Source: a virus
IMG/VR virus record: IMGVR_UViG_3300017917_002938
Location: 32,001 to 96,000 of that record
DNA: 64,000 nucleotides
Direction: 5' to 3' (one strand)
The notes beneath the pieces are model-generated. The model searched no databases and was not told the origin of the DNA. It was given only the letters and a program-made list of their open reading frames with translations. How positions within the stretch are numbered: the first letter of the stretch is position 1; each line of letters begins with the position of its first letter. A program made the translations under genes and the position numbers. Below are positions 24,304 to 35,475 of the stretch, in pieces.

Positions 24304-24756
24304 TTAAAATGCAAATTTGACACCAGCATTTACTGAGCTACCATCAAAGCTGTCGATGCGAGATTGTCCTAGTTGATAGCGATAATCTGCTGTTAAAGCT
24401 ACTGATTTAGTAATTGAATAGCTTGCGCCAGCACCTACTAGCCAAGCATACCCATCAGAGCCTGTGCGGTTATTAATAAAACCTGCACCTCCCTTTGCGG
24501 TAAGTACGATAGGTCCTACTTTGGTAATATCTACAGTACCTAGAACGGAATATCGTTCTTGTTCGATACCACTGTTGCGAAATTGATCGTAAGCGAGCTC
24601 GAACCCAGTATCACCACTTTTCTTTCCGAGGGTAATACCAACAGATGATCTATCGGTTCCTGCGAAACGTTCTCCTCCGTTAATTCCTAGCTCGAATGCT
24701 GAAGCGGCCGTAGCGCTCAAAAACAAAATAGAAAAAATAGCCGTTTTAAACTTCAT
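24304..24756 (-). CDS. Outer-membrane beta-barrel protein (OmpA/Ail-Lom-like)
   Basis: Start re-assigned to MKFKTAIF (signal peptide ending ASA); amphipathic strands; terminal Phe (AGVKFAF). Confidence 0.8.
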   Translation of the reverse strand: MKFKTAIFSILFLSATAASAFELGINGGERFAGTDRSSVGITLGKKSGDTGFELAYDQFRNSGIEQERYSVLGTVDITKVGPIVLTAKGGAGFINNRTGSDGYAWLVGAGASYSITKSVALTADYRYQLGQSRIDSFDGSSVNAGVKFAF

Positions 24757-24784
24757 GAATAGCCTTTCAATGTTATGATAAAAA

Positions 24785-25091
24785 GAGAAGTTTTTATTCT
24801 GTTGCCAAGTCAAAAACCTCTCCACAAAAAACTCCGGTCAGCGGTTAGGCTGCCAGTGCAAATCTTTCATCGTTTGCGTTTACTTTTTTTGCTTGATTTA
24901 CGGTCATCGCCTACCGTGTTGCCGTCTCTACTATCTACCCCTGTCGAAACCATGACTGGCCCATTAGAAAGAACTCTTTAGTATAGTCTGTAGCACTTGT
25001 CTGTCTCTATACAGGATGAAGAATTCTTTCTGGTGGACCAGGCGGGAGTCGAACCCGCGTCCAGAAGTCCTTCGCTTTGAAGGGATCACAA
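24785..25091 (-). ncRNA. ssrA: Two-piece (permuted) tmRNA; tag ANDERFALAA
   Basis: Acceptor piece ends ..GACGCGGGTTCGACTCCCGCCTGGTCCACCA at 25031; coding piece starts GGGCCAGTCATGGTTTCGAC at 24962; GGGCCAG/CTGGTCC stem with G3:U70; tag ORF 24877-24845; outer ends approximate. Confidence 0.92.
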
Positions 25092-25098
25092 CAATTCT

Positions 25099-25308
25099 TT
25101 ACTTAGGTGCGCCGGTTGGCTCGGCCTTCTTGTGTGTTTTGATCTTCTTACACTCTTGAACTTTTTTCCCGTCCTTGCCTACGACAGGCTTACCATCTTT
25201 ACCTACTTTATCATGACATACTTCTTTAACTACTGCTTCTGCATGCACTGGTGCAATAGAAGTAACTAAAAATAGTGATAATGCAATGGTTGACAATTGT
25301 TTTAACAT
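25099..25308 (-). CDS. Small secreted Lys-rich protein
   Basis: Signal peptide, two Cys, AGGAG RBS. Confidence 0.65.
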   Translation of the reverse strand: MLKQLSTIALSLFLVTSIAPVHAEAVVKEVCHDKVGKDGKPVVGKDGKKVQECKKIKTHKKAEPTGAPK

Positions 25309-26986: not shown

Positions 26987-27598
26987 TTAAACCACGAATT
27001 CTGTGGTGTCGTTCTCACATGCCCATAGAGTGGCTATAATTTTAGTGCCTTTTATGACTTTTTCACCTGCATGAATAGTCATGTCATTTACTACTTGAAA
27101 AGGATAGTTATATTTGAAGACAAGCATGTCGCCTTTGGAAGGGAGAACTGCAAATTTTAGTTTACTGAATGACGTGGCCCCGCCTTCGTCGGGGGTGCGT
27201 AAGTAAACAATTGCAGTAGCTATACGCTGACCTTCTTTCTTGATGTTGGGGTTTTTTTCAATCACAGATTGATCGTAGAAGTCATAATGATTTTTGTACT
27301 CTTGACCTTCTTCGTATTTTGTGAGAGTAACCCTTTGCATGGTTTTTGTAGGTCTTCCTATAATCTTGGAAAACTTTCTATGCATGTAGTGAGAAATAAA
27401 ATCATTACGGTACATAAAAAAAGAGGAACTAGTTCTCCATGAAGGATCTAATTCACTTTCAGATGTATAGACATTAACTACTTTAGATTGTTTGAAGTAT
27501 TTGTCATACTTCCAGCAAACGAAGTCACAAAAAAAGCCGGAGAACGCTCCCTCGTAGAGCGTTACTTCCGGCATATCGTTCAGTATTTCTTTTTTCAT
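26987..27598 (-). CDS. Prolyl-4-hydroxylase-like 2OG-Fe(II) oxygenase
   Basis: KYEEGQEYKNHYD..RIATAIVYL..GGATSF..HAGEKV..K; start moved to MKKEIL because the longer ORF overlaps a tRNA. Confidence 0.85.
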   Translation of the reverse strand: MKKEILNDMPEVTLYEGAFSGFFCDFVCWKYDKYFKQSKVVNVYTSESELDPSWRTSSSFFMYRNDFISHYMHRKFSKIIGRPTKTMQRVTLTKYEEGQEYKNHYDFYDQSVIEKNPNIKKEGQRIATAIVYLRTPDEGGATSFSKLKFAVLPSKGDMLVFKYNYPFQVVNDMTIHAGEKVIKGTKIIATLWACENDTTEFVV

Positions 27599-27603
27599 GT
27601 TAG

Positions 27604-27678
27604 TGGTGGGCTGACTAGGAATTGAACCTAGACTCAATCGATTATGAGTCGACTGCTTTACCATTAAGCTATCAGCCC
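27604..27678 (-). tRNA. tRNA-Ile2(CAT)
   Basis: Cloverleaf; GTCGACTCATAATCGAT anticodon arm like lysidine-accepting ileX; CCA encoded. Confidence 0.8.
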
Positions 27679-28337
27679 GTATTATTTAAAAGTTGATCGG
27701 TAAATTCTAATAGTAATTTATGTTGCCTGCCTTCATGATACAACCCTCTCATCCAGCTATGAATGGTGTACCAGTAACGTTGACTTTCTGGATGACAACC
27801 TATAAGGCCGATGTTGTTTTGAATTGCTGCCATAACATCACCATTCTTATACCTGGCAACAGTTTTAAACATGCTTTCGTTTCCTACTATAGCACAACCG
27901 TCAAAAAAGAACATCCTTTCTTTGTTACCGTTCCATTCAACTTCTATATTTTTTGCATGAGGGCGTCTTGTATCAGTTCCTGGTCTCCGTATATATTGAA
28001 CAGTATCGGCTTCTTTTAGTATATTAAAATAGTGCTTACCGGCCCAATATGCTCCCATACAAATGCCAAGGTACTTGCCTCCTCCGTTTACAAATTTCAT
28101 TACGTGATCGTGATTTTCTCTCATCAAGTAATCAAACGAATCGGAGGATCCTTCCCCTCCAGGAAAAATCACTACATCAACGTCATCAAAAAAATCATCC
28201 TCAACTTGATGTCGAGTAAATATTTTAAATTTGTAGTGTGGTGTAAGTGATTCTATTGTTCCGTTAACGCATTGTATGGAACACTTTGGATGATGTAAAA
28301 ATATTGCTGCCGTTGTGTGCTTGTATGTCAAAGACAT
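27672..28337 (-). CDS. BPL_N / class I glutamine-amidotransferase-like protein
   Basis: [24 protein letters not shown]. Confidence 0.8.
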
Positions 28338-28350
28338 AACCTCGTGTTGT

Positions 28351-28433
28351 TGGTACCCGAGACGGGATTCGAACCCGTACGCTTTTGGCGGGGGATTTTA
28401 AGTCCCCTGTGTCTACCGTTCCACCACCCGGGC
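28351..28433 (-). tRNA. tRNA-Leu(TAA)
   Basis: Cloverleaf with variable arm, CCA. Confidence 0.92.
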
Positions 28434-28438
28434 GACTA

Positions 28439-28657
28439 TTAATTGTTATTTTTCTTTACAAAATCTACAATCTTTTGAGCTTCTGTTAACACTGCCTCTA
28501 CAGTTGGTGGCTCTTCTTGGAAATCGGGACTAATCATTCCTGTCTGAGGGTTGCGAGTGCGTTCCATTTTGGAATAAAAAGACTGGTTTACTTGATCACG
28601 TGCAAGTTCTACCGCACGCACTACAAAATTAGACTCATTAGATTGATTGATAATCAT
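28439..28657 (-). CDS. Hypothetical protein
   Basis: AGGAG RBS; PTVEAVLTEAQKIVDFV. Confidence 0.6.
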   Translation of the reverse strand: MIINQSNESNFVVRAVELARDQVNQSFYSKMERTRNPQTGMISPDFQEEPPTVEAVLTEAQKIVDFVKKNNN

Positions 28658-28668
28658 TATAACTCCTA

Positions 28669-29325
28669 TTAACGAATTGTATATTGTCCGACAACTGCAC
28701 CAGGTTTTTGTAGTGTAGCATCGCGACGCTTCTTGTATTCCTCGTTGTCCACTTCAAGCAATTCAATTACACCATCAGAAGCACGAGACTGTTTATCTAG
28801 CTCTTTAAATTTCTTCTCTCTCAGCTCATTTCTAGAATTATTGTCAACGAGACGGCGGCTTTCATCGAGGGGGAGAGATAGGAGTACAAAAGCTCTATAA
28901 CCGTCTTTTTCTTTCGTTAGGAAAAGCTTTTCGCGTTTATACATTGAGAGTGATTGCTTAGTAACAATTTTAGAAACACGATCTACTTCCCTATCAATAC
29001 TTTTCATATCAGCAGTACCCTGTTCGTTTACTGACTCACGAATCATAGATTCTACTACTACGTTAACGCGATTGGCTAGTTCGACCCTGGCATTCATCAT
29101 TGCTTTGTCGATAGCAAATTGCATGTGTTTAGATACATCGGTTGCACTAACGTAGATCATTTTATCCGTAGTTAACGAGTCGTTGGTGTACCAATCAGGT
29201 ACCTCTCCTTTGAACTCAGCTACCGCTACCGTTTTTACTCCATCGGTAGTATTAGTTTTAAACGCTGAACATCCAGTCTCAAGAATACCAGCTGCGCACA
29301 GCAATAAAATTGTTAACATTCTCAT
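28669..29325 (-). CDS. Lipoprotein (LPP20-like)
   Basis: Lipobox-like TGC, VPDWY, QFAIDKAMMNARVELA. Confidence 0.65.
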   Translation of the reverse strand: MRMLTILLLCAAGILETGCSAFKTNTTDGVKTVAVAEFKGEVPDWYTNDSLTTDKMIYVSATDVSKHMQFAIDKAMMNARVELANRVNVVVESMIRESVNEQGTADMKSIDREVDRVSKIVTKQSLSMYKREKLFLTKEKDGYRAFVLLSLPLDESRRLVDNNSRNELREKKFKELDKQSRASDGVIELLEVDNEEYKKRRDATLQKPGAVVGQYTIR

Positions 29326-29334
29326 TTCACATCC

Positions 29335-30054
29335 TCATAGTCTAAAAATAGAATAATCCTTATAAACAACTCTTCGAGAGTACACCGGTAGAGTTTTAAT
29401 AAGCTCGTCCAAATGCTTCTTACTGATGTTATCGTAGTCGAAATTAAGCTTGGTCGACGTAAAAATAAACACCAATGTCTCTTTAGAGAAGTTAACGCCG
29501 TCTTTTAGTTTTGCTTCAATATGAATCGAGTTCAATTTATAAAAGTCGGAAGGAAAAATAAACTTACCGTTCACTACTCTATCCATATTATATTGAAGCG
29601 GATGAATTAAATCAACCCCATCTTTATAAACAGCAAAGACGTACATATGAACGGGTTGACGAGCATTAACGGTATACTCTACTATGTCACCGTTTTTAAA
29701 TTCACTCTTACCGTTTACTGTTACGTAGATTGATGCTGGATTATTTACTAAAACTTTCACTTCAGAATGACATATACCATTCCGTATGATTGTCTTTGAG
29801 GAAATTACTTTATTAATTTGACCCGCAGCATATGTCTCTGATTCTTTTTGATACTGACATGATGGGTCTTTGTTTTTAGTGTCTGCACAAACGTACGTTT
29901 CCACAGATTCAATAAGCATTCCGTTAGCTTGTTTAAGAGCGTGTTCAAATGCTTTTGACTCTGCAATTGCACAATTGTTATGTTCTCCCTTACCGTCATA
30001 TACCTGAGCGGTTACGACAGAAGGGAGAAGCAATGCTAGAAGTAATTTTTTCAT
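29335..30054 (-). CDS. Secreted protein, possible DUF4384-like C-terminal domain
   Basis: Signal peptide; GDIVEYTVNARQPVHMYVF..LIHP. Confidence 0.5.
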   Translation of the reverse strand: MKKLLLALLLPSVVTAQVYDGKGEHNNCAIAESKAFEHALKQANGMLIESVETYVCADTKNKDPSCQYQKESETYAAGQINKVISSKTIIRNGICHSEVKVLVNNPASIYVTVNGKSEFKNGDIVEYTVNARQPVHMYVFAVYKDGVDLIHPLQYNMDRVVNGKFIFPSDFYKLNSIHIEAKLKDGVNFSKETLVFIFTSTKLNFDYDNISKKHLDELIKTLPVYSRRVVYKDYSIFRL

Positions 30055-30060
30055 ACTAGT

Positions 30061-30090
30061 ATTGTAACGAAAATGAAAAAATAAAGCAAC
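30061..30090 (-). promoter_or_regulatory. Phage early promoter (leaderless transcript likely)
   Basis: GTTGCTTTATTT..TACAAT, 17-nt spacer; ATG 6 nt downstream. Confidence 0.7.
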
Positions 30091-30101
30091 TAGTTTATGT
30101 C

Positions 30102-30176
30102 TGGCCCGGCGTGAGGGAATCGAACCCCCATTCGCACTTTAGAAGAATGCTGTCCTATCCATTGAACGAACGCCAG
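30102..30176 (-). tRNA. tRNA-Arg(TCT)
   Basis: Cloverleaf, CCA. Confidence 0.9.
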
Positions 30177-30185
30177 GTATTGTTA

Positions 30186-30656
30186 TTATGCTGCTTTCAG
30201 AGATTTAAATCTATCGGCTGCATATGAGGCTGCGAAAGCTTCTGGTTTAACCAAAGGTACAACATTACATGTACCACGAATGTATCCAATAGCTTCATTC
30301 ACCACGCATGATGATCCGTGCATTTCGTTAGGGTTGATGTCAAGATGAACTTGAACATCTCTGCCTTCTAGTACATCAGCAAGCTTCAAATACAATTCAC
30401 TAACCTTATACACCTCATTCATTAGACGGTAACGTGGGCGATTAAACTTTTGATCGTAGTCACGTTCTTTTTGAATTTCACCAAATAGTTTACAACCGTT
30501 ATTACCGTTGATGTGAACGACAATAGCTAGAATGTAATCCGCCCACCATTCCTTACCAACTTTATATCTCTCAGAGTCACAACCAATATAGATTTTTGTT
30601 TCTGGAGATTGCGCCTGAATGAATTCTTTTACTTCTTCTAGATCAAGCTTACGCAT
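30186..30656 (-). CDS. RNase H-like YkuK/DUF458 protein
   Basis: IYIGCDS..RLMNEV..VHLDINP..VKPEAFAASYAADR. Confidence 0.85.
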   Translation of the reverse strand: MRKLDLEEVKEFIQAQSPETKIYIGCDSERYKVGKEWWADYILAIVVHINGNNGCKLFGEIQKERDYDQKFNRPRYRLMNEVYKVSELYLKLADVLEGRDVQVHLDINPNEMHGSSCVVNEAIGYIRGTCNVVPLVKPEAFAASYAADRFKSLKAA

Positions 30657-30671
30657 AGTACTACCTTTCTA

Positions 30672-30745
30672 TGGCACCCCGAGAGGGATTCGAACCCCCA
30701 CCAACGGTTTTGGAGACCGCAATGCTGCCGTTACACCATCGAGAT
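30672..30745 (-). tRNA. tRNA-Trp(CCA)
   Basis: Cloverleaf, CCA. Confidence 0.9.
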
Positions 30746-30756
30746 ACGTTTTTTAT

Positions 30757-31017
30757 TTAGGGTGAGGATATGAGTTTGATCCGGCAACGAAGCCGCTTAG
30801 CAATATGCAATTAGCAATATGCAATAAGCAGACCACAAAGCATAGGATTCCGTTTATCAACAAGCAGCGACTTTCGTCTTGTATGGAACGGAGCAACAAG
30901 CATGGGTTGGTCGGGATTGATCGGATTCGGGTTAACAAGGCCCAAACCTAGCTAGTAAGACATTTCAAGTGTCAACTAGATTGCAACAACGCCCCCTTCA
31001 CTCCCCCATACCCTCAA
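30757..31017 (-). ncRNA. Unannotated structured RNA with tandem heptamers
   Basis: 5'/3' closing stem GAGGGTATGGG/CTCATATCCTC, several hairpins, five tandem TGCWWAK units. Confidence 0.6.
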
Positions 31018-31021
31018 AACT

Positions 31022-31603
31022 TTATAGAATACCTTCCGCTTTAAGAGTCTGAACGGTTAGTTCAGACAATGTAATCAAGGTATTGACATTGAGTTGTAAG
31101 AGTTTATCTTGCAGCTCTTGACGATCACGCTTGAGGTTTCTAACTGCATTTTTTGCAGCGTCAATATCTGATTGCAACACTACGCTGGTTTCAACGTTGT
31201 TAAAACGGTCACCGTAAATGGATGCACGCGCAGAATCGGAAGGTTGTTCTTTGAACTTTTGAATTCGTGCACTGATTTCAATCTGACTCTTACGAGGTTT
31301 GAGACCTGCAATCACACTATGTACGGCCATAGAAGCGTCTGTAGCTTCTACTTCTGCTAAGATAGTGTTAATGTCAGCATCAGCATTAGCCTTACCTACG
31401 CGTTTACGAATGTCGTACATTGCGTTGATAAGTGATAGTTTACGAGTAACTGTATCGTTTAACTCTGCACGGTTTTTGGTAAGAGTATCTTCTACCCCAT
31501 CTGTAAACTCAGATACCTGAGTCTCAGATTCAAATTTTATTCCGTTAATAGTTTTACGAATCTCGGCTTGAATTGCATTAGCTTTACGTAGATTAACTTG
31601 CAT
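31022..31603 (-). CDS. Coiled-coil protein, weakly resembling the DIP1984/DUF6847 family
   Basis: ATG after AAGGA; NLRKANAIQAEI..YDIRKRVGKAN..LKRDRQELQDKLLQLNVNT. Confidence 0.6.
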   Translation of the reverse strand: MQVNLRKANAIQAEIRKTINGIKFESETQVSEFTDGVEDTLTKNRAELNDTVTRKLSLINAMYDIRKRVGKANADADINTILAEVEATDASMAVHSVIAGLKPRKSQIEISARIQKFKEQPSDSARASIYGDRFNNVETSVVLQSDIDAAKNAVRNLKRDRQELQDKLLQLNVNTLITLSELTVQTLKAEGIL

Positions 31604-31628
31604 GTTATTTCCTTTCAATCAATAATGT

Positions 31629-31658
31629 ATTCTATATGAATTTTTTAATAAGATCAAC
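31629..31658 (-). promoter_or_regulatory. Phage early promoter
   Basis: GTTGATCTTATT..TAGAAT, 17-nt spacer. Confidence 0.7.
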
Positions 31659-31659
31659 T

Positions 31660-31735
31660 TGGTGCTGCCTCGTGGGATCGAACCACGTTCCTCGGTTCTT
31701 CAGACCGGTGCTATGACCACATCAGCTAAAGCAGC
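31660..31735 (-). tRNA. tRNA-Phe(GAA)
   Basis: Cloverleaf, CCA. Confidence 0.88.
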
Positions 31736-31742
31736 ATTAAAT

Positions 31743-31817
31743 TGGTACCTGGTCACGGTTTCGAACCGCGGACCCTCTCCTTGTAAGGGAGACGCTCTAC
31801 CCCTGAGCTAACCAGGC
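31743..31817 (-). tRNA. tRNA-Val(TAC)
   Basis: Cloverleaf, CCA. Confidence 0.92.
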
Positions 31818-31828
31818 ATAATTCTCTT

Positions 31829-31904
31829 TGGGGTACTATAAGAGGATCGAACTCTTACTATCTCGGTCACAGCGAGAGGTGCAGACCACTACACTAATAG
31901 TACC
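31829..31904 (-). tRNA. tRNA-His(GTG)
   Basis: Cloverleaf, G-1:C73, CCA. Confidence 0.9.
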
Positions 31905-31914
31905 CCAAAAAGAA

Positions 31915-32148
31915 CTAAGTTATTTGTTTCTGTACTCTACCTATACGACTATTTTTACTCCAATCATATTTGGTTCCATCTGGACATTTTCCATCTTTGA
32001 CAGAATCTACTCCAAATTTACCAACAATCTCTGTAACGCCGTTTGTAATAGTTACAAACTTTCCATATGCTTTTGCAAACTCCAATGCATCATTCAATGT
32101 TGGACTTGCGTTTAGTATCATACCGTTTTCTATTTTAATATTCCACAT
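31915..32148 (-). CDS. Hypothetical protein
   Basis: 77 aa, AAGGA RBS, fits between tRNAs. Confidence 0.65.
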   Translation of the reverse strand: MWNIKIENGMILNASPTLNDALEFAKAYGKFVTITNGVTEIVGKFGVDSVKDGKCPDGTKYDWSKNSRIGRVQKQIT

Positions 32149-32157
32149 AAAAATCCT

Positions 32158-32231
32158 TGGCCGGGGTGCTAGGGCTCGAACCTAGAATAGCAGAGTCAAA
32201 GTCTGCGGTGTTACCATTACACTACACCCCA
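32158..32231 (-). tRNA. tRNA-Gln(TTG)
   Basis: Cloverleaf, CCA. Confidence 0.92.
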
Positions 32232-32239
32232 ATAATGAA

Positions 32240-32455
32240 TTTGTTGTAGTAGTGCCGCCATCGTTATCGGCACCATTCACCTGGATTAACTAGCCCGGGC
32301 AGGACTCGGTAAGTCACTTGGGATACTCATCCAGTTAGCAACCATACTGCGGCGATCTTCCGATCGCCCGGGAGTTGAACCCGTCCCCTTCTACTATATC
32401 AGTCCTTCGAAGAAACCTTTATAGCGTGACATTCTCTTGCTGACACTACAACAAA
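32240..32455 (-). ncRNA. Unannotated multi-stem RNA containing a T-arm mimic
   Basis: 11-bp closing stem TTTGTTGTAGT/ACTACAACAAA; nested GTCAC/GTGAC and AGGAC/GTCCT; CGGG-TTCAACT-CCCG; GGCGATC-GGAA-GATCGCC. Confidence 0.7.
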
Positions 32456-32458
32456 ACT

Positions 32459-32535
<77 letters not shown>

Positions 32536-32541
32536 ATAACT

Positions 32542-32615
32542 TGGTGCCCCTTGACAGAATCGAACTGCCGTACCCGGGTTACAAAGCCGGTGTAATACCA
32601 CTATACTAAAAGGGC
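32542..32615 (-). tRNA. tRNA-Thr(TGT)
   Basis: Cloverleaf, CCA. Confidence 0.88.
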
Positions 32616-32620
32616 AAAAA

Positions 32621-32695
32621 TGGCTCCGGTGGCTGGGATCGAACCAACGACCAATTGATTAACAGTCAACTGCACTACCGCTGTGCTACACCGGA
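32621..32695 (-). tRNA. tRNA-Asn(GTT)
   Basis: Cloverleaf, CCA. Confidence 0.92.
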
Positions 32696-32701
32696 ATAAC
32701 C

Positions 32702-32775
32702 TGGTTGCGGGAGAGGGAATCGAACCCCCATCTGGAGCTTATGAGACTCCTGAATTACCGTTACTCTATCCCGCG
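32702..32775 (-). tRNA. tRNA-fMet(CAT), initiator-type
   Basis: CGCGGG 5' end with C1:A72 mismatch, CAT anticodon. Confidence 0.82.
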
Positions 32776-32782
32776 TCAAAAT

Positions 32783-32857
32783 TGGCGGTCTCAAGGGGTA
32801 ACGATCCCCTTCTTTATGCGTGACAGGCATACGTGCGTCCATGAACACTTTGAGACC
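32783..32857 (-). tRNA. tRNA-Asp(GTC)
   Basis: Cloverleaf; atypical ATCGTTA T-loop. Confidence 0.85.
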
Positions 32858-33044
32858 TATATTCTTTGCACGGCTACGTTTTTCAAGTCGCCCCGTACTG
32901 AGTTTACAACCCTGTCGCCACCTTTGCTTATTCTGCTGTGTGGATCATCATACCAGATTCTGCTTACGTCTGCGCTAACGGTCTTCTGGACACCGGATCT
33001 TTATCGCGTAATCAAGCGCCTCTGCCACGCTGAGGAGCGGAAAC

Positions 33045-33133
33045 TGGTGGAAGTGGTAGGATTCGAACCTACAGCGTTTCTTATGTGGCGGATTTACAGT
33101 CCGTTGCCTTCAACCAATTCAGCACACACTTCC
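33045..33133 (-). tRNA. tRNA-Tyr(GTA)
   Basis: Cloverleaf with variable arm, CCA. Confidence 0.9.
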
Positions 33134-33138
33134 AATTT

Positions 33139-33222
33139 TGGTGCCCCAGGAGAGACTCGAACTCTCACGCCTTTCGACATTGGCTTCTAAGACCAACGTG
33201 TCTACCATTCCACCACCGGGGC
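33139..33222 (-). tRNA. tRNA-Leu(TAG)
   Basis: Cloverleaf with variable arm, CCA. Confidence 0.92.
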
Positions 33223-33226
33223 AAAT

Positions 33227-33382
33227 TACCATTTGTTTAGTGTTATCGTGCCTATTTGTCAACAATGTAGCTAGCACTGACAAGCGAATAACAGTTATAT
33301 CAGACAGTGTTGGTCGCACCCTTACTGTCGCGTAGTCATAGCGTCCTATGACGATACCTTTGATAACACTAAACAAATGGTA
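33227..33382 (-). repeat. 21-bp perfect inverted repeat enclosing three hairpins; one arm includes the tRNA-Glu ACCA end
   Basis: TACCATTTGTTTAGTGTTATC (33227-33247) / GATAACACTAAACAAATGGTA (33362-33382). Confidence 0.85.
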
Positions 33383-33453
33383 CACCGTACGGGAATCGAA
33401 CCCGTCTTACCAACGTGAAAGGCTGGTGTCCTAAACCGATAGACGAACGGTGC
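33378..33453 (-). tRNA. tRNA-Glu(TTC)
   Basis: Cloverleaf, CCA. Confidence 0.9.
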
Positions 33454-33480
33454 ATTTAACTTTTTTAAAGAACGAAACGA

Positions 33481-33510
33481 ATTATATTCTGCGATGGAAA
33501 ATAAATCAAC
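33481..33510 (-). promoter_or_regulatory. Phage early promoter inside tRNA array
   Basis: GTTGATTTATTT..TATAAT, 17-nt spacer. Confidence 0.8.
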
Positions 33511-33584
33511 TGGTCCTTTCGAGAGGTAACGATCCTCTGTCTCTCGGTTATCAGCCGAGTGCTCTACCTTTGAGCTACGAAAGG
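33511..33584 (-). tRNA. tRNA-Ile(GAT)
   Basis: Cloverleaf; atypical ATCGTTA T-loop. Confidence 0.85.
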
Positions 33585-33585
33585 T

Positions 33586-33660
33586 TGGTGGTAATGAAGA
33601 GACTCGAACTCCTAACCTACACCGTATGAAGGTGCCGCACTACCATTGTGCTACATTACC
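33586..33660 (-). tRNA. tRNA-Met(CAT), elongator-type
   Basis: Cloverleaf, G1:C72, CCA. Confidence 0.82.
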
Positions 33661-34193
33661 AGTCTAGATGGTTTTACAGCCTGCAATGCAAACTTTAGCG
33701 TATCGTCGGTCTGAAAGTCTAAATGTACACATTTAAAATCTGCCTTATAGATATACCTAAAATCTGACATCGATGTCTTACCAATTTGCCTTGTGTATTC
33801 GGATTGATCGAGAAATATAAGAGATTCTTTTTGAATCACTCTCGTATGACTCGGATCTCCCCATACCCAGGGCGAGTTAATATTTGGACAGGTAGCCATC
33901 AAGAAACCTCCTGGTTTCAGAATTCTCCAGAACTCACTAAACTGAGCAAAGAAAAATTTATAGTCTCCCTGTCTTCCGGTATGTTCTAGAACTTCATATG
34001 CATGAATTTCATCAAACGTATTATCCTCAAAAACCGAATATGGTATGTTACAAAGATCCCACACTATATCCGGTTTATGATCGCGGTTAATATCAAGGGT
34101 AGTTAGATTATTCCATTCAGGATTACCATCATGAATGACTTTCTCTCTACGACTACCACATCCAATTAATAGTTCTTTTTTATAGTTTACCAT
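33651..34193 (-). CDS. Class I SAM-dependent methyltransferase (Methyltransf_11-like)
   Basis: LLIGCG, FDEIHAYEVLEH, WRILKPGG, WGDPSHTR. Confidence 0.85.
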   Translation of the reverse strand: MVNYKKELLIGCGSRREKVIHDGNPEWNNLTTLDINRDHKPDIVWDLCNIPYSVFEDNTFDEIHAYEVLEHTGRQGDYKFFFAQFSEFWRILKPGGFLMATCPNINSPWVWGDPSHTRVIQKESLIFLDQSEYTRQIGKTSMSDFRYIYKADFKCVHLDFQTDDTLKFALQAVKPSRLVM

Positions 34194-34290
34194 ATAGAAA
34201 CATACTAAATCTGCGACACCGTCAAATGCCGCATCGCCTAGTTGACGCTAGACCGCCAGAGTGTGGCGTTCAGTATGTTTTTATATGGTA
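34188..34290 (-). repeat. 19-bp inverted repeat joining the tRNA-Lys ACCA end to the methyltransferase start codon
   Basis: 34188-34206 / 34272-34290, one mismatch. Confidence 0.8.
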
Positions 34291-34360
34291 GGGGCACAGA
34301 GAATCGAACTCTGATTAATAGGTTAAAAGCCTACTACTTTAGCCGTTAAGTTATACCCCC
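34286..34360 (-). tRNA. tRNA-Lys(TTT)
   Basis: Cloverleaf, CCA. Confidence 0.9.
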
Positions 34361-34482
34361 AGCAATTCTTGTTTTTGAGCTCTACGTAGTGCCTTATTAG
34401 ACTTACGATGAACTCCTGCTTTACGAAAAAGCGCTAAACGAACGAAGCAGTTACGTTCGCGCGCGATGGGTTTTCGTTTCAT
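34351..34482 (-). CDS. Small basic protein (43 aa) with stop inside tRNA-Lys
   Basis: GAGG RBS; MKRKPIARERNCFVRLALFRKAGVHRKSNKALRRAQKQELLGV*. Confidence 0.7.
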   Translation of the reverse strand: MKRKPIARERNCFVRLALFRKAGVHRKSNKALRRAQKQELLGV

Positions 34483-34580
34483 TTTTTCCTCACTTTAAGT
34501 TTTTGTCGATTACTACTATTAGTATTATTACGATAAGAAGTACTGAGACCGCCCCATGTTGTTTCTCCTTAACAAGTCTA

Positions 34581-34610
34581 ATTATAGATGTAGTTGGAAA
34601 ATAAGGCAAC
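34581..34610 (-). promoter_or_regulatory. Phage early promoter
   Basis: GTTGCCTTATTT..TATAAT, 17-nt spacer. Confidence 0.75.
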
Positions 34611-34638
34611 AACTTTTTTTCTAACTATTTCTAGTTAC

Positions 34639-34716
34639 TGGAGTGTCGAGTCAGATTTGAACTGACGGCTTTACGGGTTTGCAATCCGTTCCCTTGGACC
34701 TCTCGGGCATCGACAC
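34639..34716 (-). tRNA. tRNA-Cys(GCA)
   Basis: Cloverleaf, U73, CCA. Confidence 0.88.
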
Positions 34717-34721
34717 ATATC

Positions 34722-34795
34722 TGGTGCTGCTAGGAGGTAACGATCCTCCGTTTCCGCCTTACCAAGGCGGTGTAATACCTTTATACTATAGCAGC
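34722..34795 (-). tRNA. tRNA-Thr(GGT)
   Basis: Cloverleaf; atypical ATCGTTA T-loop. Confidence 0.85.
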
Positions 34796-34800
34796 AAAAA

Positions 34801-34888
34801 TGGCGGAGGGTATCAGACTCGAACTGATGCGCCCATTTCTGAACGACGGTTTAGCAAACCGCTGGTTTAACCGCTCACCCAACCCTCC
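34801..34888 (-). tRNA. tRNA-Ser(GCT)
   Basis: Cloverleaf with long variable arm, G73, CCA. Confidence 0.92.
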
Positions 34889-35475
34889 TAAGTAGCAAAC
34901 TTCCACTCTGTTTTTTCTTTAAACCCTACCTCACCACCTTGCTCTTTTATTCTTTTGAACACCTCTTCAAGCAGTATTGGTCTAAAGTCAATCTGCTCAA
35001 CACAGACAGAGAAATAGCGAGGATCAATTTTTTTTCCATGTTTAGTAAATCCATCATCCATTTTTACTCTATTCGAATGGAGATGTCCATGAACGTTGCA
35101 GCCAAACCGATACAGTTGGTCAGGGTGCACTGGTACATGAGTAAAAATACAACCGTTCATTACATGGCTGCCTCTGATATCTCTAAAGTATTGAGTGTAT
35201 TCTTCAAGTTTAAAAATATCGTGGTTACCTTTAATCAACACTTTGTCTCCGTTCAACCGACCTAGCGTTTTTAATGCTTTACGGTTGATAACAACGTCGC
35301 CTAGATGATATACTTTGTCATTGGGTCGAACAGTTTCGTTCCACCGCTTGACCATTTCTTCATCCATCTCATCCGGGTTATCCCACGGCCTGAGCTTCTC
35401 TCCGTCTTCACGTGTAAATCGGCATACGCCGGCGTGACCGAAGTGCGTATCGCTAACTACGAATACCGATGGCAT
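34888..35475 (-). CDS. Calcineurin-like metallophosphoesterase
   Basis: SDTHFGH, LGD, KGNHD, THVP, HGHLH. Confidence 0.92.
   Translation of the reverse strand: MPSVFVVSDTHFGHAGVCRFTREDGEKLRPWDNPDEMDEEMVKRWNETVRPNDKVYHLGDVVINRKALKTLGRLNGDKVLIKGNHDIFKLEEYTQYFRDIRGSHVMNGCIFTHVPVHPDQLYRFGCNVHGHLHSNRVKMDDGFTKHGKKIDPRYFSVCVEQIDFRPILLEEVFKRIKEQGGEVGFKEKTEWKFAT

Follow-up and report, generated by a model that had tools for sequence, protein, structure and literature searches.

When the stop codon of a gene lies inside the transfer RNA (tRNA) gene that follows it, is the message meant to lose that stop? A 64,000-nucleotide (nt) stretch of virus DNA raises this question four times. The stretch, hereafter the window, covers positions 32,001 to 96,000 of IMGVR_UViG_3300017917_002938, a 163.5-kb phage record in IMG/VR. 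In it, a 43-codon basic open reading frame (ORF) and three enzyme genes each have a stop codon that falls within the 5′ end of the next tRNA gene, and all four positions were confirmed by ARAGORN, the ORF list and a reading of the minus strand. The initial annotation had suggested that all four genes are programmed sources of non-stop messenger RNA (mRNA). Comparison with relatives strongly supports this idea for the 43-codon ORF and speaks against it for the three enzymes. When conservation of the overlaps was set against simple gene compaction, the enzyme overlaps proved to be unconserved, and the absence of a stop from the small ORF proved to be conserved.

The 43-codon ORF (34351..34482, minus strand) starts with ATG at 34482-34480 and has a conserved core that spans residues 1-34. 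Its TAA (34353-34351) is nt 8-10 of a tRNA-Lys(UUU) gene with an encoded CCA (34286..34360, minus strand; ARAGORN, and 65.4 bits with the Rfam tRNA model), and the last two codons of the ORF also lie within this tRNA. Nucleotide 1 of the tRNA-Lys (34360) comes directly after the ORF codon CTG, so that, once ribonuclease (RNase) P had cut, the last codon of the mRNA would be a sense codon.

The same junction is found throughout the phage relatives. The fetched phage loci yielded 90 unique ORF nucleotide sequences, and all counts given here are of unique sequences, not of independent events. No in-frame stop lies ahead of the downstream tRNA in 77 of the 90. The fused tRNA in these 77 is Lys(UUU) in 73 cases, Lys(CUU) in 1, Arg(UCU) in 2 and Met in 1, and the nominal stops fall at tRNA nt 6, 8, 11-14, 16, 19, 21, 24 or 28, or past the whole tRNA. 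The tRNA begins in all three phases relative to the ORF (38/24/15), with its nt 1 located 12-26 nt past the end of the core in 73 of the 77. An in-frame stop between core and tRNA occurs in none of 74 junctions, whereas 18 and 13 junctions have a stop when read in one or the other of the remaining frames. Great diversity is seen among the fused tRNA-Lys genes, which comprise 53 distinct sequences that are 37-99% identical (median 63%). In 46 of 71 cases the nucleotide just ahead of the fused tRNA (position -1) is U, the preferred context of bacterial RNase P. An upstream tRNA, variable in identity, ends no more than 100 nt before the ATG in 64 of the 90. When loci were fetched with other baits, they yielded 27 unique tRNA-Lys(UUU) genes, of which only 4 have the ORF; the ORF needs the tRNA, not vice versa. 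As a gene, the small ORF lacks its own stop.

A hairpin takes the place of the tRNA in a sister phage clade, where the core reads ...PRNYLVKLALF... and no tRNA-Lys lies beside the gene. Every one of the 30 unique copies in this clade has a near-perfect helix of 18-26 bp that starts 17-22 nt past the core end, either as a simple hairpin or as a long stem that closes off an insert of 80-100 nt. Translation would meet its stop in the loop, in the 3′ arm or past the helix. Across ten sequences compared, a 15-bp run stays intact, two pairs show compensatory double changes, and the fold z-scores range from -5.4 to -8.3. The tails encoded here are hydrophobic and are dictated by the stem. An Rfam scan of the structured tails of this clade returned no known family.

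Bacterial homologues have yet another structure after the core. Our bacterial sample consisted of 301 genomes from the order of a Rhodoferax metagenome-assembled genome (the Burkholderiales order). One copy each was found in 43 of these genomes with the phage profile and in 57 with the bacterial profile, and the phage and bacterial alignments match each other with an hhalign probability of 98.9% (E 1e-17). The bacterial copies have no adjoining tRNA-Lys and lie apart from tRNAs. At 11 of 29 bacterial loci there is an intrinsic terminator whose end lies 12-99 nt ahead of the first in-frame stop; the one in L441 was confirmed with a terminator scan tool. The residues G-R-D-D-x-P-P-F-F are the translated terminator, and the sequence behind it is unlike even between near-identical genes. 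On this comparison one family has three unrelated putative 3′-end devices, a tRNA, a hairpin and a terminator, each placed ahead of any stop.

In bacteria, the gene directly 5′ of the small gene encodes RtcB, an RNA 2′,3′-cyclic-phosphate ligase, and lies on the same strand at 8 of 34 loci (L413, L415, L416, L418, L424, L425, L428 and L445), and hslV-hslU lies directly upstream in 4 of the 34 (L420, L422, L434 and L436). In five bacterial loci, a protein of about 320-372 residues without a Pfam match ends at the start codon of the small gene.

The 43-codon ORF is a real protein-coding gene. Across 60 unique core sequences, the ratio of nonsynonymous to synonymous polymorphism (pN/pS) of the family is 0.13, and 53% of pairwise core differences are at third codon positions. 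A Shine-Dalgarno sequence, GTGAGG (34488..34493, minus strand), lies 5 nt before the ATG, and the element is conserved in the relatives as AGGA/GGAG-type sites 5-9 nt before theirs. About 100 nt upstream there is a sigma-70-like promoter match (34581..34609, minus strand; TTGCCT, 17 nt, TATAAT), which agrees with the consensus at 10 of 12 positions and is a consensus match only. By profile search the family numbers 430 clusters at 90% identity; when 1.84 billion representatives were searched, it numbered 582 clusters at 50% identity (E≤1e-3). The "longer" members found in databases are gene calls that run on through tRNAs, their tails being translated tRNA-Lys sequence.

The core consensus is approximately PRNPFVxLALFRKAGxHRKxNKALRR. 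The protein begins with a short basic segment, continues with a hydrophobic helix and ends in a helix that is strongly basic. AlphaFold2 models it as helix 12-21, a loop and helix 29-41 (predicted local distance difference test score 76). The family has no match in Pfam (E≤1), NCBIfam or PHROG, and its profile has none among all PDB chain sequences at E≤10. A likeness by eye to ribosomal proteins L34, S21 and L28 was rejected on the lack of any Pfam match at E≤1. Our search of the literature, which did not cover subscription journals, found no description of this family or of non-stop mRNAs made by RNase P.

To our knowledge, arfA and brfA are the only bacterial genes described as controlled through a non-stop mRNA. 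The arfA mRNA has an RNase III hairpin late in the ORF that removes the stop, and the ArfA protein is tagged by transfer-messenger RNA (tmRNA) unless trans-translation is overloaded; the full-length protein has a hydrophobic, destabilizing tail (PMC3989581). We folded E. coli arfA and found the equivalent hairpin after its basic core. ArfA and the new family share a small basic protein, a structure before the stop, which truncates the mRNA in arfA and putatively does so here, and nominal tails that are hydrophobic or unconserved, and the layout of the phage hairpin clade is that of arfA. Unlike ArfA, the new family has no KGKGS motif, and whereas the arfA device is an RNase III hairpin, the putative device of the window copy is a tRNA gene, a substrate of RNase P. 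In brfA of Bacillus subtilis, an intrinsic terminator within the coding region produces the non-stop mRNA (PMC6881298). A brfA-type terminator ahead of the stop is seen in bacterial members only, in the 11 of 29 loci above. BrfA resembles the new family in having N-terminal helices followed by a basic C-terminal part, but it belongs to another phylum, and the phage copies have a tRNA or a hairpin in place of the terminator. The tRNA 5′ ends, the 18-26 bp hairpins and the internal terminators that precede the stops form an arfA-type sequence architecture.

A third precedent bears on the protein more than on its mRNA. ArfT of Francisella tularensis is a basic rescue factor of 40 residues that is lineage-restricted and unannotated; from its example, rescue factors of this kind evolve independently and go unnoticed by annotation (bioRxiv 10.1101/465609). 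Small Arf-type factors in general are lineage-restricted, mutually non-homologous and often unannotated (bioRxiv 10.1101/465609). We liken the new family to ArfT by description only, and arfT differs in having a normal stop and no control by tmRNA.

Excision of flanking tRNAs also sets mRNA ends in mitochondrial tRNA punctuation and in bacterial mRNA-tRNA co-transcripts. As in the window, mitochondrial frames may be cut before their stop is complete. Polyadenylation then supplies the missing part of the mitochondrial stop, and translation terminates normally. The small-ORF frame, by contrast, ends on sense codons in all three phases, and so no stop could be completed.

Taken with the junctions, these precedents suggest a mechanism. 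The gene usually lies between two tRNAs. Were RNase P to cut at nt 1 of the tRNA-Lys, the mRNA would stop short at a sense codon located 4-8 codons past the core; in the window copy the cut would come after ...GAA TTG CTG and give a product of 41 residues. Ribosomes would run to the 3′ end of this mRNA, and the peptide would be tagged by the tmRNA of host or phage and then degraded, unless trans-translation were saturated. The control logic would be that of arfA, with its RNase III hairpin, and of brfA, with its internal terminator, and the protein would be a ribosome-associated factor needed once rescue capacity runs out. We infer that RNase P or RNase III cuts before translation ends, that tmRNA tags the product and that the protein acts in this way. 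The mRNA of the 43-codon ORF is probably subject to such programmed truncation, being a non-stop message under tmRNA control that in the window would be made by RNase P.

A tagging system for non-stop products is likely at hand in the tmRNA of the phage together with the host's own. That the phage carries its own tmRNA, as first annotated, was borne out by both ARAGORN and Rfam: a permuted tmRNA gene with the tag ANDERFALAA lies at 24754..25145 (minus strand; beta_tmRNA 154.6 bits, tmRNA_permuted 146.1 bits), and its Rfam class is betaproteobacterial. No SmpB, release factor or Pth genes were found in the phage genome. Of the 18 large contigs with the ORF, 14 also encode a permuted tmRNA, as do 9 of the 10 that are at least 90% complete; for the tRNA-fused clade the figure is 14 of 15 large contigs.

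What the protein does is a separate matter. The reasons to consider a rescue function are the control logic, a size and charge layout that would suit one, and bacterial neighborhoods with RNA-repair and protease genes, and we would tentatively class the small protein as a ribosome-rescue-type factor, an assignment somewhat short of probable. Burkholderiales may have here a new alternative rescue factor, one that their phages have borrowed. The broader proposal, to be held just as tentatively, is a fourth independent class of small rescue factor, native to Burkholderiales, in which canonical ArfA is nearly absent, and captured by their large phages with tRNAs and a tmRNA. Its tmRNA-controlled non-stop mRNA could arise interchangeably through a terminator, an RNase III hairpin or, as a new route, RNase P excision of a downstream tRNA.

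Several results weigh against this interpretation of the gene or of its product. Three bacterial loci have an ordinary stop 6-20 nt before the terminator, and a simple terminator scan found none in 12 of the 29. The copy in L246 has its own stop, located within a hairpin. A divergent copy in the cultured Acidovorax phage ACP17 has its own TGA and no tRNA nearby. None of the three large contigs of the hairpin clade, G011, G013 and G014 (those of L313, L326 and L361), has a permuted tmRNA, and the co-occurrence of ORF and tmRNA elsewhere may reflect plain shared ancestry. A model in which any RNase P site would serve does not account for the near-exclusive choice of tRNA-Lys(UUU). Nor did the searches show homology to ArfA or BrfA. 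Foldseek of the AlphaFold2 model against PDB gave no fold match, and neither that search nor the profile search of PDB chains, which include solved rescue-factor complexes, revealed homology to BrfA. Homology to ArfA was rejected: there was no Pfam match, PF03889 found nothing in the phage genome at E≤10, and hhalign of the phage and bacterial alignments against the ArfA alignment gave a probability of at most 0.1%. Canonical ArfA occurs in 3 of the 301 genomes, none of which has the new family; with only three ArfA genomes, we did not count this mutual exclusion as evidence.

The remaining contrary evidence is best weighed through the strongest rival explanation, that the overlaps are simply tolerated. 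All four ORFs would be translated from unprocessed precursor to the stop that the tRNA supplies, the small protein would accept any C-terminal tail, and its tie to tRNA-Lys would be inherited synteny in a compact island. In this phage group an overlap is nothing out of the ordinary. We collected unique junctions from related uncultured phage loci in which an ORF of at least 100 codons ends no more than 40 nt from a tRNA 5′ end, excluding ORFs that cross another tRNA. The ORF overlaps the tRNA in 25 of the 122 (about 20%), and overlap per se is therefore a common by-product of packing. In the other 97 the stop is complete before the tRNA begins, mostly with 0-10 nt to spare. Of the eight ORF-to-tRNA junctions in the window, four overlap and four leave gaps of 5-11 nt, which at a baseline of about 20% is just mildly above expectation. 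The overlapping baseline stops concentrate at tRNA nt 8, 13 and 19, positions that the small ORF also uses; tRNAs supply U8-A9-R10 plus the TAA or TAG of the D-loop. Stops in tRNA 5′ ends are thus frequent in these phages and are not by themselves evidence of regulation. Many of the ordinary overlaps involve ORFs that resemble homing endonucleases, with stops at tRNA nt 5, 8, 13 and 19 (GIY-YIG-like in L332, L341 and L161; Cys-rich and HNH-like in L334, L147 and L177), which suggests that insertions beside tRNA genes create them.

Transcription and translation are coupled in bacteria, and ribosomes could reach a stop borne by a tRNA before the tRNA folds. A full-length small protein with a short, tolerated tail is thus possible, and some family members do have normal stops. 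Tolerance is harder to reconcile with the frame counts, in which stops before the tRNA are missing from the ORF's own frame only, or with the use of three phases and of highly diverse tRNA-Lys genes. Nor does it address why the same spot holds hairpins in the sister clade and pre-stop terminators in bacteria, or why tails range from 2 to more than 40 unrelated residues. Given the frames, the tRNA diversity, the hairpins and the terminators, synteny alone cannot explain the junctions, and we regard simple tolerance as unlikely.

Programmed truncation must also be set against the possibility that the structured RNA acts mainly as a barrier to 3′ exonucleases that stabilizes a short mRNA, or as a ribosome-sensitive switch, and not to remove the stop. 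Hairpins and terminators are known stabilizers of mRNA, and tRNA, hairpin and terminator are all stable 3′ structures. A stabilizer has no need to sit upstream of the stop, however, and for 11 bacterial copies the transcript would be terminated without having reached a stop. RNase P would remove the tRNA and leave no cap, and the tails behind the structure are unconstrained. This explanation is quite improbable.

The preference for one tRNA suggests a third rival, which we consider more improbable still: the small ORF could be a cis-acting leader (an upstream ORF) for folding or maturation of tRNA-Lys, or a factor for damage or repair of that tRNA, with the non-stop feature secondary. The linkage is nearly exclusive to tRNA-Lys(UUU), with a few tRNA-Arg(UCU), and tRNA-Lys(UUU) is a classic target of anticodon nucleases. 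Bacterial copies directly follow rtcB, whose product is the ligase that reseals cleaved tRNAs. Yet the ORF accompanies just those 4 of 27 phage tRNA-Lys(UUU) genes, and the hairpin clade and the bacterial copies do without an adjoining tRNA-Lys. A leader peptide should have few constrained codons and an obligatory coupling to its RNA gene, a description that the 43-codon ORF does not fit. Selection at the amino-acid level across the whole 34-residue core, in 582 clusters, favors a trans-acting protein. The tRNA-Lys(UUU) preference and the rtcB linkage make a role related to tRNA damage conceivable. Finally, that all four genes, enzymes included, are deliberately expressed through non-stop mRNAs, with levels that follow RNase P or tmRNA activity, can be dismissed almost entirely: the overlaps exist, the phage carries a tmRNA and the closest relative of one enzyme gene also loses its stop by 1 nt, but the enzyme overlaps are not conserved and enzyme orthologues retain a full stop 0-7 nt ahead of the tRNA.

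The three enzyme genes, all on the minus strand, bear this out individually. The metallophosphoesterase-like gene (34888..35475), whose Pfam match is slightly below cut-off, ends in a TAG (34890-34888) with its G as nt 1 of tRNA-Ser(GCU) (34801-34888). That tRNA was called by ARAGORN only, and its G1-C72 acceptor pair is readable in the sequence. Among 446 relatives, none of 80 fetched loci shows an overlap with a tRNA, and in 31 of the 80 the tRNA begins 0-7 nt past the stop; counted as unique junctions, none of 27 overlaps. The tRNA on the 3′ side varies (Ser, Leu, Cys, Met, Trp, Gln or Arg). The 1-nt overlap in the window looks like a minimal slip from the usual abutting layout.

The methyltransferase gene (33651..34193) has its TAG (33653-33651) at nt 8-10 of tRNA-Met (33586-33660). 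Its own stop with no tRNA downstream is found in 65 of 67 relatives, and one relative overlaps a tRNA-Val by 2 nt. We judge the window overlap to be a probable lineage-specific product of packing. The GATase/BPL_N-like gene (27672..28337) stops with TGA (27674-27672) at nt 5-7 of tRNA(CAU) (27604-27678). In its closest relative (82% identity, L081) the G of a TAG is nt 1 of the same tRNA; another relative stops 1 nt ahead of a tRNA-Ser, and 13 have no downstream tRNA. This too we judge to be a probable packing overlap. The Rfam tRNA model also placed the 5′ ends of tRNA(CAU), tRNA-Met and tRNA-Lys at 27678, 33660 and 34360.

An overlap that is incidental to compaction should be unconserved, with a partner tRNA that varies or is absent. 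The three enzyme genes behave in this way and the 43-codon ORF does not. In the tRNA island of this phage, whose genes are packed end to end, the enzyme genes extend a few bases into a tRNA, in all likelihood incidentally, U8-A9-R10 and the D-loop of the tRNA offering ready-made stops. For the 1-nt overlaps (the metallophosphoesterase gene and the GATase-like gene of L081), completion of UA to UAA by polyadenylation in the manner of mitochondria is conceivable; conservation lends it no support.

If programmed truncation of the small ORF is correct, it would define a new protein family with a non-stop signature, with 582 clusters and a presence in about one fifth of the sampled Burkholderiales-order genomes, and would provide the first candidate factor of this type in phages. 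Processing of tRNA would become a new route to programmed non-stop mRNA, which would help explain why large phages keep a tmRNA beside their tRNA arrays. Ribosome rescue would be tied to the RtcB RNA-repair and HslUV stress operons. There would also be a rule for annotating small stop-less genes, which gene callers truncate, extend or miss.

The ACP17 copy lies unannotated between gp244 and gp245 (NC_041997 151742-151894; L399:2501-2653) and has no ATG, GTG or TTG start, so that it is possibly started at CTG or read from the upstream gene. A nucleotide search of cultured phages with our sequence gave matches to tRNAs only and no near relative.

Other structured elements lie near family members. 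In L162-L165 (~1600-1760; for example L163:1612-1740), the tRNA-Lys that the ORF enters is a 5′ half only, with acceptor strand, D-arm and anticodon stem. A structure closed by a stem of about 15 bp takes the place of the rest, and ARAGORN calls no tRNA; a search of these loci for an intron or for the 3′ half of an interrupted tRNA-Lys found no matching acceptor strand. Among the hairpin-clade copies, the closing-stem insert in L331, L339, L343 and L344 (~1620-1745) holds a T-arm-like hairpin with the loop GGTTCGAAAC, which belongs to no Rfam family. In L324, L325, L328, L330 and L339, the hairpin-clade ORF is separated from tRNA-Gly(UCC) by a stretch that includes a conserved, structured element of about 70 nt. 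It sits about 100 nt before the tRNA-Gly, begins ATGCGGTGTGT, ends CCACCGCTCC and has no Rfam match.

Two minor features of the window complete the picture of its tRNA island, in which ARAGORN finds, on the minus strand throughout, 29 tRNA genes and one permuted tmRNA. Between the promoter-like site and the 43-codon ORF there is a mini-ORF of 9 codons (34528-34557, minus strand), preceded by a strong Shine-Dalgarno sequence, AAGGAG. On the 3′ side of tRNA(CAU) is a 2-oxoglutarate- and Fe(II)-dependent (2OG-Fe(II)) oxygenase gene. The ORF-finder list starts it at an ATG at 27664 that falls within the tRNA; its likeliest start is an ATG 5 nt past the CCA end (27596-27604, minus strand), and packing is therefore tight on both sides of the tRNAs.

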